DNA of 43,501 bases, taken from positions 1 through 43,501 of the IMG/VR virus record IMGVR_UViG_3300021399_000121. One strand, given 5' to 3'. The position numbers and the translations under genes were made by a program. Below are positions 16,371 through 43,501 of this stretch, piece by piece. Source of the DNA: a virus (Duplodnaviria; Heunggongvirae; Uroviricota; Caudoviricetes). The first letter of the stretch is position 1; every line of letters starts with the position of its first letter. Under the pieces are notes generated by a model that saw only the letters and a list, made by a program, of their open reading frames with translations, ran no database searches and had not been told where the DNA came from.

Positions 16371-16682
16371 ATGCAATCAATTTCGAATAAGTTAACTTCT
16401 AGAAAGTTTTGAATGGCAGTTGCCGCATTTTTAGCTTCTATTGGAACTTCTATTGGGGCTTTTGTTACTGATAATGGCCCAGTAGCAGCAGTAGGAGTAG
16501 TTTGTGCTATGTTAAGTGCCGCAATTTATGCTGCTGCAGAAGCCTATGTTGATGGACAAGGGTTACAAAGTAATGCAGCTACAACAGTAACTACAAAGAC
16601 AATTAGTGCAACAAGTTCAAATGCTAGGGAGACAGTAGAAAAAATTCTTGCTACTAATCCTGGAAATTCTGTACAAGAGTAA
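16371..16682 (+). CDS. Putative holin, 103 aa, in-frame TGA (16410) = Trp14
   Basis: SD AGGAGA precedes ATG 16371. Translation MQSISNKLTSRKF(W)MAVAAFLASIG... gives the KLTSRKFW opening I recognise from Firmicutes phage holins, then two TM helices ending in AEAYVDG. The track's start at 16413 has no SD. Confidence 0.8.
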
Positions 16683-16690
16683 GGATATTT

Positions 16691-16870
16691 ATGGCTATTA
16701 AACAAATAAGTGATGATCGTGATTTTGATTGGGAAGAATATATTTTTGATGTTCCTGACGATGTGTCAGATTTACCAGTAGATTGTGGTTGAGGTTCAAG
16801 AGCAATTTGTATTACTACTGGTGATATTTATATCCTTAGTTCAGAAAAAGAATGGACATTACTTCCATAG
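16691..16870 (+). CDS. Small hypothetical protein, 59 aa, one TGA=Trp (missed by the ORF track)
   Basis: SD AAGGA. MAIKQISDDRDFDWEEYIFDVPDDVSDLPVDCG(W)GSRAICITTGDIYILSSEKEWTLLP, TAG stop directly before a terminator. Confidence 0.7.
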
Positions 16871-16877
16871 TAAATTT

Positions 16878-16909
16878 ATAGCTCGCATTAATTTGCGAGC
16901 TATTTTTTT
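16878..16909 (+). terminator. Intrinsic terminator closing the holin unit
   Basis: ATAGCTCGCA-ttaatt-TGCGAGCTAT followed by a T run. Confidence 0.9.
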
Positions 16910-17008
16910 ATATATATCAAATATCAAAATACAATAATTCATGAGTTTTGATTTTCATATACAATAGAAATGTATTTAGAGACAAAGGAAGATAAGGAGT
17001 GTGCGGCT

Positions 17009-41224: not shown

Positions 41225-41228
41225 AGAT

Positions 41229-41274
41229 AAAGGTCTTGTTTTATACAAGACCTTTTTTCTTTTTTTTAAATAAC
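41229..41274 (+). terminator. Intrinsic terminator after the tape measure gene
   Basis: AAAGGTCTTGT-tttat-ACAAGACCTTT (41229-41255) followed by long T tracts. Confidence 0.9.
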
Positions 41275-41299
41275 AAAAATTAATAATAAATAACAATTA

Positions 41300-41319
41300 A
41301 AAATTAAATATAATAGAAA
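41300..41319 (+). promoter_or_regulatory. Candidate late-promoter motif (AAAATTAAATATAATAGAAA)
   Basis: Lies between the terminator and the tail fibre SD. 19/20 identity to 31895-31914. Confidence 0.55.
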
Positions 41320-41350
41320 TATAAAAATAACGGCTATAAAAGGAGAATAG

Positions 41351-43501
41351 ATGGATACTGTATCTTATCTAACTATTAATGATGAAACAAAAGAAATAGC
41401 GGATAAAGCTAGCCGTGACAATATTAATAATATTATAGCAACAGTTACAGCGCATGATAAAGATATTGAATATATACAACTTGAGACAGGGCCGCAAGGT
41501 TCAATTTTAGCTTCAATTGATGATGCTCAAGCTCTTGCCGTTTCTGCTCAAGTTAGTGCGGCAACAGCAAATGCTTCAGCAGTATATGCAGATGAAAAAG
41601 CTACAGAAGCACAACAAGCCGCTGAAACAGCACAATCACATGCGGACGATGCATCTAACGCCGCACAAACAGCTTGAGATAAAGCTAATGACGCAACTGA
41701 TGCGGCAGTTGAAGCGAATAGAAAAGCTGATGATGCTACAACCGCAGCAAGTGTAGCTTGAAATCAAGCTAATATAGCTGCTGGCGCAGCTGAAACTGCT
41801 GAGGATAAAGCTAATAGTGCTACAATTGCAGCTGATAATGCTGCCAAAAAAGCTGATGACGCTACAAGATCAGCGGCTTCTGCTCAAAGAGATGCTATTT
41901 ATGCTAATCAATATGCCAATGGCGCTCTCGCTGGAATGTCTACTTTACAATCTGTAATTGATACAGTTCAATGGTTCGCTGATCATAAAGTATTAACAGA
42001 AGATACCACTGTTGACCCAGAAAAAAATTATTATACTTTAGATGAAACAACTGGAACTATGTCAAAAGCGGAATTAAACGGTAGTGAAAATCCGCAAGAA
42101 TTAGAATTATATGAACTTGATGAAACAATTCAAAATTATGTAGTATCACGTATTGCAGAAACTCCCGATGGTCTTTATATTTTATCAACAACTACTGGAT
42201 GAAGGATTTTAATATCGCCTGGTACAAACACTTATTTACCAGGTGTTTTTATAATTGGTCCAGATGGTGTTATAAAACAAGGAATAACAGGCGCTATCGA
42301 TGAAGATCATCCTGGTGGAATTCATTTTGACAGTAAATCTCCTTTTTATATTGGCGATGAAAATGCCTATATTAATTTTGATGGCAATGGTAAGATTGCT
42401 ATTGGCGGAGATGGCATCAATATTTATTCCCCTCTTGAAATTGGTGGAACAAAAACTTTAAGTGAAGTATTAAATGATTTAGGTAAAGCAATCGTTGCTA
42501 TAGAATATGGTATTGGTGATTCTCCTGTGAGTCATTCTGATATTCTCGAATGATCAAGTGAAAGTCCTGAATGAACTCCTGGAAAATATATTTGGATGAG
42601 AACCACTGATAATGGTTTAACTTATACTTATACTTGTATCCAAGGTGCTCAAGGTCCACGTGGTGAAACTGGAGAGCGCGGTGAAACAGGGGAACCAGCA
42701 CCTGAAGCAATTGGTATAATATCTGTTGAAACTTCTTATGCATTGAGTACTTCTGAAGATATTATTCCAAGAGACGAAGATTGAAAAGATTCCATCAGTC
42801 AAGATTGATATTCAAATTATTATGACTATGGTGAAATTGGTGAGACTGGTGAAACTGGTATATATGGTGAGACTGGCGAGACTGGTATATATGGCGAGAC
42901 TGGTGCAACTGGTGAACTTGTTTATGATGAAGTTGAAAGTCTTGATGAAGAAAGTCTTTTATCATTAGAAAAGGGAACTTGACTTTGAATTCGTACTATT
43001 ACAACTTATTCAGATTCAAGTTTTACAGTTACTTATCAAAAATCTTATATTGGTACAGATGGGAAAGATGGCAAAAGTGTCTATGTTCAAAGTTCTTCTA
43101 AAGAAAATGGTGTTACCACTGTAGTATTAATTGATGATGATGGAAATCAAACAGAATTAAAAATAGCAGATGGTGAAGATGGTGCTGATGGTATACAAGG
43201 TACTTCAGGATATATTCATATTGCGTGAGCAGATGACATTCAAATTATCACAGAACAAGATGAAACTAAAACTGTAGAAGCAACTGGATTTAGTGTTGAA
43301 GATAGTACTAATAAAAAATACATGGGTGTATATACTGATGAAAATGTAAATGACAGTGGTAATCCTCAAGATTATAATTGAAGTCTTATTAAAGGCGCGG
43401 ATGGCACCTCCGTAACTGTCACAGACATTGAATATGCAAAAACTTCAACAGATGCTCAACCATCTAGTGATGATTTTGAATCTACCATGCCGCAAACAAA
43501 T
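41351..43501 (+). CDS. Tail fibre / receptor-binding protein with Ala-rich coiled coil and collagen-like repeats (partial, runs off the right edge), 11 TGA=Trp so far
   Basis: Frame is open to the window end with only TGA interruptions. Typical fibre repeats have TGA at their Trp positions: (W)SSESPE(W)[12 protein letters not shown](W)L(W)[14 protein letters not shown](W)[10 protein letters not shown]...DYN(W)SLIKG. GXY runs include [18 protein letters not shown]. Confidence 0.85.
42839..42916 (+). repeat. 27-bp tandem repeat encoding collagen-like GETGETGIY units
   Basis: ggtgagactggtgaaactggtatatat / ggtgagactggcgagactggtatatat / ggcgagactggtgcaactggtgaa. Confidence 0.85.

Follow-up and report, generated by a model that had tools for sequence, protein, structure and literature searches.

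Stop-codon reassignment in uncultured phages was reportedly described by Ivanova et al. in Science in 2014, and the study of Borges et al., drawn on here as a preprint, is said to have appeared later, in 2022, in Nature Microbiology. TGA-to-Trp recoding of late genes is described in this preprint, together with a cattle-associated lineage, Agate, with genomes of about 127 kb, and suppressor tRNAs were detected there in only 35% of the phages using code 4 (Borges et al., bioRxiv 10.1101/2021.08.26.457843). In crAss-like phages, either TAG or TGA is recoded in late genes (Yutin et al. 2021, PMC7886860). A sequence-only reading of the DNA analysed here had proposed late-biased recoding of TGA to Trp and had called the phenomenon already described, which holds (Borges et al., bioRxiv 10.1101/2021.08.26.457843).

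The window, i.e. the whole stretch of 43,501 nucleotides, corresponds to the first 43.5 kb of a 107.5-kb contig that is itself a genome fragment (74% completeness) and is collinear with a relative, G001 (95% complete, 141 kb). The phage is uncultured, siphovirus-type and SPbeta- or Agate-like, originates from rumen or gut samples and has a whole genome of approximately 140 kb with a GC content of about 34%, of which a segment of about 30 kb is missing from the contig. Among public sequencing runs, the window is held by one DNA run, and no RNA run is listed. Five IMG/VR relatives with 45-65% amino acid identity formed the comparison set for the codon columns. Relatives of the large terminase subunit (TerL) are also found in MAG bins (73 in GTDB), whose labels are inconsistent (Mollicutes, Tenericutes, Anaeroplasmatales, Treponema, Prevotella and others); since the binned sequences are entire phage contigs under mixed labels, no host was called from the bins.

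The late plus-strand frames (16362-43501) contain 88 in-frame TGA and 26 TGG codons (77% TGA), and neither TAA nor TAG. A mechanical count under translation table 4, over seven long plus-strand ORFs and three small ones (16691-16870, 31573-31845 and 31942-32232), gives 90 in-frame TGAs; the number falls to 88 because two of them (24990 and 24993) precede the likely true start, ATG 24999, of a gene called mechanically as 468 aa. The figures of about 88 TGAs, of about 77% of late Trp codons and of TAA/TAG-free frames of up to 8.6 kb, proposed from the letters alone, agree with these counts, the longest such frame (32618-41224) extending over 8607 nt with 17 TGAs. Indeed, frame 0 of the late ORFs is free of TAA and TAG over 8563 codons while the two other frames hold 305-616 TAA, and at the off-frame stop rate the probability of finding neither triplet over 2868 codons is about 1e-80. 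By contrast, the 13 early ORFs with a length of 100 aa or more (95-11058 on the minus strand, 12536-16108 on the plus strand) contain no TGA and 57 TGG, so that TGA accounts for 0/57 of the early Trp codons versus 90/116 of the late ones by the mechanical count (Fisher p = 9e-26; 88/114 after start correction). When TGA is read as Trp, this residue makes up 1.30% of the late proteins and 1.31% of the early ones. From 0% in the early genes, the TGA share rises to about 47% in the head genes of the relative and to about 77% in tail and lysis genes. The base 3' of TGA tracks the background distribution, with C the rarest, and there is therefore no leaky-stop context. The recoded range had been given as 16371-43501: the TGA-rich block is present there, but its start is not at 16371, since two plus-strand genes from 11851 onwards (11851-12228 and 12218-13039) carry one TGA each, and recoding runs on beyond the window to about 54 kb and appears again at 102.7-106.8 kb of the contig. 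Over the whole contig, 151 in-frame TGA sites are present, and TGA is hardly ever employed for termination.

Comparison with relatives supports UGA as a sense codon for Trp in structural and lysis-type genes. At the 71 TGA sites of the window that could be aligned, the relatives have TGA (199), TGG (35), Tyr (26), gap (17), Leu (10) and Phe (4), and neither Gly nor Cys; two of the 315 aligned codons are Ser. Conversely, sites occupied by TGG in the window correspond to TGA (50) or TGG (25) in the relatives, i.e. TGA and TGG swap freely. In distant homologues of the 1125-aa protein described below, W occupies the column of TGA210 in 100/102 sequences and that of TGA861 in 100/101; two of these homologues lie on contigs without in-frame TGA in called genes, so their W is encoded by TGG. 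At TGA299 of the terminase-like protein, W is found in 55/65 distant full-length homologues and is invariant in a 13-sequence alignment. Two checks had been suggested for the Trp assignment, and it came through both. The aligned codons are mainly TGA, TGG or Tyr, with no Gly or Cys, and standard-code homologues have W; furthermore, plus-strand cover of 16371-43501 rises from 46-59% with table 11 to 94-97% with table 4, as 18-32 fragments become 7-9 ORFs. Single alignments cross 17-27 TGAs in five independent assemblies. Internal paralogues offered just four sites for comparing TGA with TGG, too small a number to be informative. The six Trp motifs quoted in the sequence-only reading are exact, the codon being TGA in each (16410, 25524, 40913, 42986, 43226 and 43379).

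The early replication block (95..11058, minus strand) comprises nine ORFs with no in-frame TGA and 35 TGG, all ending in TAA or TAG, and encodes a Sak4-like protein, a GIY-YIG endonuclease, a DNA ligase and two topoisomerase II subunits, among others. It is followed on the plus strand by a 125-aa 'middle' gene (11851-12228), whose single TGA, at codon 80, is kept as TGA, and by a gene for a 273-aa metallophosphoesterase (12218-13039) with one TGA at codon 67. The Pfam Metallophos match covers residues 8-241, so the domain spans this TGA, and the G001 orthologue has TGG at the same codon. A 65-aa gene (13079..13276, plus strand) ends at TGA 13274-13276, the sole apparent true TGA stop in the window. 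Its orthologue in G001 (78% identity) has TAG at this place, from which it appears that TGA still terminates at that stage; this stop would thus argue for a standard-code host. Four standard-code genes (493, 296, 137 and 79 aa; 13288..16351, plus strand), with no TGA and 16 TGG, lie directly 5' of the recoded block. The 296-aa protein (14747-15637, plus strand) is modelled by AlphaFold (pLDDT 86.7) as a TIM barrel with a conserved Cys cluster; its Atlas neighbours are U32 peptidases, and its best AFDB match is the U32-family protein MJ1657 (TM 0.55). A 135.9-kb contig is recorded as carrying an identical copy of this protein. No family match was found for the 493-, 137- and 79-aa proteins, nor for the 468-aa protein of the recoded block.

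The recoded block, entirely on the plus strand, opens with a gene (16362..16682) for a 106-aa protein with two predicted transmembrane helices and a polar, Ser/Thr-rich C-terminal tail. Its sole Trp, W17, lies just before the first helix and is encoded by TGA 16410-16412, which is conserved in G001. The holin family models of Pfam, NCBIfam and PHROG gave no match, and the protein fits a holin by topology and gene position alone. The earlier designation of the recoded genes as 'lysis and tail genes' therefore stands for the tail, while its lysis part comes down to this holin-like protein; the endolysin of the clade lies outside the studied contig. Next come a 59-aa ORF (16691..16870; 1 TGA, 2 TGG), each of whose three Trp codons is conserved as such in G001, and a 2671-aa ORF (16970..24985; 27 TGA, 7 TGG), for which one tblastn alignment spans residues 9-2662 in relatives and no match was found in Pfam, PHROG, NCBIfam or the PDB. 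The gene called mechanically as 468 aa from GTG 24909, a start that would add the two TGAs mentioned above, is more probably a gene of about 438 aa (24999..26315; 10 TGA, 6 TGG) with its ATG after AAAGGA. A 608-aa ORF (26340..28166; 6 TGA, 2 TGG) matches phrog_30026 and is 54-56% identical to its relatives over the full length. A virion-type protein of 1125 aa (28185..31562; 13 TGA, 6 TGG) has a DUF5048-like C-terminus and no sequence match in the PDB. Two paralogous small proteins (31573..32232) of 90 aa (31573-31845) and 96 aa (31942-32232) consist of an N-terminal transmembrane helix followed by a coiled coil; each has one TGA, at W22, a codon that in the case of the 90-aa protein is TGG in the orthologue from G001. 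The tape measure protein (2868 aa; 32618..41224; 17 TGA, 1 TGG) is recognized by Pfam PhageMin_Tail (7.9e-28) and phrog_4211 (2e-64), and one alignment spans its residues 1-2650 in relatives. Finally, a collagen-repeat tail fibre of 1863 aa begins at 41351; its N-terminal 717 residues lie in the window (41351..43501) and the gene continues to contig position 46942, with 11 TGAs within the window and 34 in all.

A search for a UGA decoder on the contig, which carries 19 tRNAs, found no tRNA(UCA) with ARAGORN or Rfam, at relaxed settings as well. ARAGORN with relaxed thresholds, introns and mitochondrial mode returned nothing but implausible calls with low scores, none of them a credible tRNA(UCA), and Rfam (gathering and E-value thresholds) returned 18 tRNAs and a ROOL RNA but no suppressor. 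One contig tRNA-Gln(UUG) was detected only by Rfam and relaxed ARAGORN. No RF-1 domain or TrpRS was found in the contig or in G001, and no RF2-removing factor was found. Modification or editing of C34 of tRNA-Trp(CCA) was also considered and rejected: no TilS-type PP-loop domain was found, and a gene of the dCMP/cytidine deaminase family (contig 57062-57451), with a counterpart in G001, probably belongs to ordinary nucleotide metabolism.

In G001, however, a stand-alone tRNA(UCA) gene is present at 18170-18266, about 11.5 kb beyond the end of the studied contig; it is followed 3' by a 167-aa ORF and then by a GH25 endolysin gene with 13 TGAs. GH25 is the only endolysin domain found, in G001, and no Amidase_2 or Amidase_3 domain was detected. 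The same tRNA(UCA) occurs in a second relative, L058, in which the UCA stem differs by five compensatory pair changes, and its position in both relatives maps to the missing segment of the studied contig. The locus is also spanned, at about 92% identity and with no indel in or near the tRNA, by an 8.4-kb contig from the one public run in which the window occurs. From synteny and this co-sampled contig, we infer that the studied phage has the tRNA(UCA) as well. With 8 bp in its acceptor stem, 4 bp in its T stem and a long extra arm, the tRNA(UCA) of the G001 clade takes a class II or Sec-like shape; it scores 42 bits with the Rfam tRNA-Sec model and goes undetected by the general one for tRNA. 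It has A1-U72 and G73, and its extra-arm loop contains CUCCACA. With such a shape, charging with Trp is not self-evident; A1-U72 and G73 are identity elements of bacterial tRNA-Trp. In a pattern scan of IMG/VR, 21 tRNA(UCA) genes of phages were found in which an additional 'anticodon' arm bears CCA. Their body resembles tRNA-Trp, the loops of arms 1 and 2 read CUUCAAA and CUCCAAA, respectively, and both stems covary. The tRNA(UCA) of the G001 clade shares their layout (A1-U72, G73 and long extra arm) but differs in its degenerate second loop (10 nt, CCA kept) and in its acceptor and T stems of 8 and 4 bp. No published description of a phage tRNA(UCA) with a second CCA-bearing arm was found.

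Taken together, these data very probably reflect a phage code switch in which TGA-to-Trp recoding is biased towards late genes, the tRNA(UCA) is encoded by the phage and the host uses the standard code. The phage would infect such a host, whose code is presumed, and its early replication genes, having no TGA, can be translated in either code state. It would then produce its own tRNA with a UCA anticodon, the gene for which sits, in G001, in the late region just 5' of the endolysin gene, and the host TrpRS would presumably charge this tRNA with Trp. Accumulating tRNA(UCA) could outcompete RF2 at UGA, at a time and to an extent that we assume, and only then would full-length products arise from ORFs containing as many as 34 UGAs. 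The holin-like protein, the tape measure protein, the fibres, the terminase-like protein and a sigma-like protein would be gated in this way, and AT pressure could feed the drift from TGG to TGA. A full-length product from a 34-UGA ORF needs near-complete suppression. A more specific version of the switch, in which the code of the clade is run by an undescribed suppressor, a tRNA-Trp-derived tRNA(UCA) whose extra arm is a copy of the CCA anticodon arm, and in which the rising TGA share sets the order of the late proteins, is tentative and rather doubtful; in that version, the host TrpRS might still recognize the tRNA through the CCA-copy arm, and UGA would be read by the UCA arm.

Other explanations have been weighed against this switch. 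If the TGAs were real stops, the frames would be pseudogenes, assembly errors or strings of small genes, and numerous ORFs of 100-400 aa do appear there with table 11; but these fragments share one frame without TAA or TAG over up to 8.6 kb, domain models span the TGAs, and single alignments run across 17-27 of them in five assemblies obtained independently, 199 TGAs being kept at their positions. The conservation data rule this explanation out, and its probability is practically nil. Slightly less improbable, but still hardly credible, is that TGA encodes another residue, either Gly, as in code 25, or Ser, Sec or Cys delivered by a tRNA(UCA) whose 8-bp acceptor stem, 4-bp T stem, long arm and 42-bit tRNA-Sec score would suit such a role. 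Against it, TGA or TGG accounts for 234 of the 315 aligned codons, with no Gly, no Cys and two Ser, conserved TGA columns are W in standard-code homologues, and the 151 sites of the contig are too many for SECIS-dependent insertion of Sec; the A1-U72 and G73 of the tRNA(UCA) are also those of bacterial tRNA-Trp.

Two further explanations concern the decoder and the host. UGA could be read by a near-cognate tRNA-Trp(CCA) without a dedicated suppressor, as such a tRNA is present both in G001 and on the contig (68392-68468), where no UCA tRNA was detected. The contig copy has C9 and a U11-A24 pair in the ARAGORN fold, features that resemble the Hirsh-type D-arm changes by which E. coli tRNA-Trp reads UGA. 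Its D-arm fold is nevertheless ambiguous, D-arm suppressors are inefficient and would not support ORFs with 27-34 UGAs, and this reading was put aside once the relatives showed a dedicated tRNA(UCA) beside the lysis genes; we consider it improbable. A little more weight, though still a small one, may be given to a host that itself uses code 4, i.e. a Mycoplasmatales-like bacterium without RF2 and with a tRNA-Trp(UCA), which the phage would follow without any switch. The low GC content of the genome, the binning of some relatives with Mollicutes, Tenericutes or Anaeroplasmatales MAGs and the lack of the decoder tRNA on the contig are consistent with such a host. However, the early genes have 0/57 TGA despite the same AT pressure, the stop of the 65-aa gene is TGA where its orthologue has TAG, and the near-complete relative G001 has its own tRNA(UCA); the bin labels of whole phage contigs, which also include Treponema and Prevotella, are not host evidence, and where phage and host share the code, about 90% of the genes are recoded (Borges et al., bioRxiv 10.1101/2021.08.26.457843).

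The phage code switch outlined above has practical consequences. With table 11, about half of the region is lost and five proteins of 600-2900 residues, two of them longer than 2600, are broken into 18-32 pieces; annotation, host-range and protein-family work on such contigs must therefore use table 4. The locus offers a clean, well-controlled example of a phage whose early genes are readable in both codes and whose late genes are open only after a code change. The reasons for the under-detection of suppressor tRNAs in such phages are illustrated as well: the general Rfam model misses the decoder of the clade, which here would in addition fall in an assembly gap.

In comparison with known systems, this case is a clear example of the published phage code switch, and the recoding itself adds no new principle. 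As in the code-4 phages and the Agate lineage of Borges et al. (bioRxiv 10.1101/2021.08.26.457843), TGA hardly ever acts as a stop, GC content is low, the source is ruminant or gut and the genome size is similar; as in the code-4 phages there, a suppressor tRNA lies near the lysis genes (here in relatives), and release factors and aminoacyl-tRNA synthetases are absent, as in most of those genomes. The phage resembles the Agate lineage, the agreement being limited to size, source and recoding pattern. Unlike in that study, the decoder is class II or Sec-like, a shape absent from that paper, and is missed by the general tRNA model, and one TGA still serves as a stop. The crAss-like phages and those of Ivanova et al. 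likewise have a code that differs from that of the presumed host, a concentration of recoding in the late block and phage suppressor tRNAs (here in relatives); however, they are podovirus-like Crassvirales of Bacteroidota with mostly TAG-to-Gln recoding, whereas the present phage is long-tailed and siphovirus-type, with SPbeta-like tail proteins. In-frame TGA is also common to the code-25 phages of Absconditabacteria and Gracilibacteria, in which TGA encodes Gly, but there recoding extends to about 90% of the genes and the TGA columns hold Gly, while here the early genes are TGA-free and Gly occurs in 0/315 aligned codons. Details added by the present analysis include the class II/Sec-shaped decoder of the clade upstream of the GH25 endolysin gene, and the TGA stop that matches a TAG in the orthologue.

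Called with the standard code (table 11), the plus strand between 16.3 and 43.5 kb contains 18-32 ORFs covering 46-59% of its length, whereas table 4, in which TGA is read as Trp, gives 7-9 ORFs covering 94-97%, which bears out the rise in coding density that the sequence-only reading had proposed as a check of its claim of UGA-to-Trp reassignment. Frame 0 of the late ORFs is free of TAA and TAG over 8563 codons, and the other two frames contain 305-616 TAA. A mechanical count gave 90 in-frame TGAs, three small ORFs included. Two of these (24990 and 24993) fall between the stop of the gene encoding a 2671-aa protein and the likely true start of the following gene (ATG 24999, preceded by AAAGGA); without them, 88 TGA and 26 TGG remain (77% TGA), which matches the earlier hand count of about 88 TGAs and about 77% of late Trp codons, and the six protein motifs quoted with it are all exact in the sequence. 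Upstream of 16108, the early region has 13 ORFs of 100 aa or more; these use no TGA and 57 TGG, and all stop at TAA or TAG (early vs late TGA use, Fisher test, p = 9e-26). With TGA counted as Trp, the Trp content is 1.30% in late proteins and 1.31% in early proteins.

The amino acid assigned to TGA was examined by column comparison with five IMG/VR relatives sharing 45-65% amino acid identity with the window proteins, in which single tblastn segments cross all TGAs of the giant ORFs. At the 71 covered TGA sites, the relatives have TGA (199), TGG (35), Tyr (26), gaps (17), Leu (10) and Phe (4). An alignment of TGA mostly to Gly, Cys or gaps had been named as grounds for rejecting the reassignment; indeed, no Gly, no Cys and 17 gaps were found against 234 TGA/TGG. 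Reciprocally, TGG sites of the window correspond to TGA (50) or TGG (25) in the relatives, and TGA and TGG are therefore interchangeable. In the metallophosphoesterase gene (12218-13039), the Pfam domain spans the TGA, a position taken by TGG in the orthologue. More distant proteins point the same way: among 120 database homologues of a virion-type protein of 1125 aa (28185-31562), TGA210 corresponds to W in 100 of the 102 distant ones (less than 55% identity) and TGA861 in 100 of 101, and the less conserved TGA columns contain Y, L, F or W, as do the TGG columns. Two of these homologues are readable with table 11; in-frame TGG numbers 61 on the contig of one and 90 on that of the other, in-frame TGA is absent from both contigs, and one of these contigs also uses TGA as a stop. 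For a terminase-like protein (contig 105037-106794; 1472 relatives in an exhaustive HMMER search), the TGA299 column is W in 55 of the 65 full-length distant relatives and invariant in a 13-sequence alignment; many database entries of its relatives are fragments, as would be expected if recoded relatives had been cut short by table-11 gene calling. The base 3' of TGA is distributed as in the background, hence there is no leaky-stop context. Judged from these aligned codons and residues, TGA is read as Trp, and the interpretation of the sequence-only reading is supported by the relatives' codons, the W columns of homologues and the table-4 cover.

The recoding had been placed from 16371 onwards. 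Dense TGA use does begin at 16.36 kb and continues to ~54 kb of the contig, but single TGA codons already occur in two genes between 11.85 and 13.04 kb. TGA use returns at contig 102.7-106.8 kb, in the genes for a sigma-like/HNH protein, a protein without assigned function and the terminase-like protein; over the whole contig, the late ORFs have 151 TGA and 59 TGG. The sigma-factor-like protein (contig 102714-103811, +; HNH C-terminus, phrog_5767) has six in-frame TGAs, so that a putative transcription factor would be among the products that need the code switch. A 65-aa gene (13079-13276, +) ends at TGA (13274-13276), apparently the one genuine TGA stop in the window. The same codon is TAG in the orthologue of a relative, IMGVR_UViG_3300021399_000112 (hereafter G001), and the TGA shares bases with the next gene's ribosome-binding site, GAGGAG. 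Once the code is switched, this gene would be read through for 34 further codons, across the start of a 493-aa gene. At its stage of infection, TGA would still act as a stop. Together with the TGA-free early genes, this favours a host that uses the standard code, with the switch taking place in the course of infection. TerL relatives in MAG bins carry mixed labels, mostly Bacillota, the entries being whole phage contigs.

The contig (107,501 bp, 34% GC, without terminal repeat, 74% complete according to CheckV), whose bases 1-43501 are the window, begins with a replication-type block on the minus strand (95-11058) encoding a Sak4-like protein, a GIY-YIG endonuclease, a DNA ligase and two topoisomerase II subunits; from 11.4 kb on, genes lie on the plus strand. 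These include a putative 106-aa holin, so labelled from topology only, and a tape measure protein (32618-41224, +; Pfam PhageMin_Tail, 8e-28; phrog_4211, 2e-64), whose closest cultured relatives are Enterococcus, Bacillus and SPbeta-type phages (~26% identity, tblastn), followed by collagen-repeat tail fibres. Two paralogous small proteins encoded just 5' of the tape measure gene (31573-32232, +) each have an N-terminal TM helix and a coiled coil, and one matches an Lpp-type zipper (3e-9). The sole Trp of each (W22) is TGA; they are possibly lysis or membrane-acting proteins, in the manner of the recoded family of TM proteins that Borges et al. (10.1101/2021.08.26.457843) mention.

The contig has 19 tRNA genes (66.1-73.8 kb), tRNA-Trp(CCA) among them, and no tRNA with anticodon UCA was found among them at any search setting; nor was there a match to an RF-1 domain, TrpRS or TilS. 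Translation of ORFs with 27-34 UGAs would call for effective competition against RF2. The 19th, a tRNA-Gln(UUG) (66827-66897, +) with a C-A mismatch in the anticodon stem, is detected by Rfam (42 bits) and by ARAGORN only with relaxed settings. A dCMP/cytidine deaminase-family gene kept in both phages (contig 57062-57451; G001 81992-82384) was briefly considered as a candidate for C-to-U editing of tRNA-Trp(CCA), but probably serves nucleotide metabolism. A standard-code gene located two genes before the recoded block (14747-15637, +) encodes a 296-aa protein that is modelled as a TIM barrel (pLDDT 86.7) and has a conserved cluster of cysteines, C-x3-C-x7-C-x2-C. Its Atlas neighbours are U32-family proteins and its best AFDB structural match is MJ1657, of the same family; the remaining fold matches are generic TIM barrels and no Pfam U32 match was obtained. 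The tRNA and rRNA hydroxylases TrhP and RlhA belong to the U32 family (PMC6599085); that the 296-aa protein might modify the suppressor tRNA is pure speculation. An identical protein is encoded on a 135,859-bp contig, and a more complete public assembly of the phage may thus exist.

A decoder tRNA is encoded in relatives. G001, which is 140.7 kb long and 95% complete, is collinear with the contig at 67-95% nucleotide identity. The contig ends map to position 29746 and to the end of G001, which leaves ~30 kb absent from the contig. In this segment, the G001 head genes have a moderate TGA share (14 TGA, 16 TGG, hand count), and a stand-alone 97-nt tRNA with anticodon UCA lies at 18170-18266 (-), followed by a predicted terminator hairpin, an ORF of 167 aa and a gene for a GH25 endolysin (570 aa, 13 TGAs). 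The shape of this tRNA is class II or Sec tRNA-like (A1-U72, G73, encoded CCA end; acceptor stem 8 bp, T stem 4 bp, anticodon stem 6 bp; long extra arm); it escapes the general Rfam tRNA model and scores 42 bits with the tRNA-Sec model, under that model's threshold. The tRNA recurs in a second relative, with five compensatory changes that all fall in the UCA stem. The only public run with window DNA contains an 8.4-kb contig that spans the G001 tRNA locus (~92% identity) and shows no insertion or deletion at the tRNA or close to it, which is compatible with its presence in the window's phage, though no proof of linkage. A pattern scan of IMG/VR (UCA loop, then CCA loop, then T loop) matched 21 loci against well under one expected (rough estimate), and ARAGORN called a tRNA of ~96 nt at 20 of them. 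These tRNAs combine a tRNA-Trp-like body with tandem anticodon-type hairpins, with loops CUUCAAA then CUCCAAA; both stems show compensatory changes, with up to four pair types per position and 15-16 of 16 distinct sequences paired at every position. In the G001 tRNA, the extra arm is a degenerate version, its loop containing CUCCACA. No published description of such a two-arm UCA and CCA design, in which the CCA arm might serve recognition by TrpRS, was found in the literature.

The unusual decoder tRNA of the relatives is the more interesting thread, though off the contig; the recoding itself is of modest interest. TGA-to-Trp late-gene recoding, as in the window's phage, is of a kind already known: it occurs in several phage clades with predicted standard-code Firmicutes or Bacteroidetes hosts; a TGA-recoded Agate lineage (~127 kb, cattle samples included) is described as well; and only 35% of code-4 genomes yielded a suppressor tRNA, the authors noting that tRNAs of non-canonical form may be overlooked (Borges et al., 10.1101/2021.08.26.457843). 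The window's phage agrees with that description in every tested respect, the likeness to Agate being one by description.
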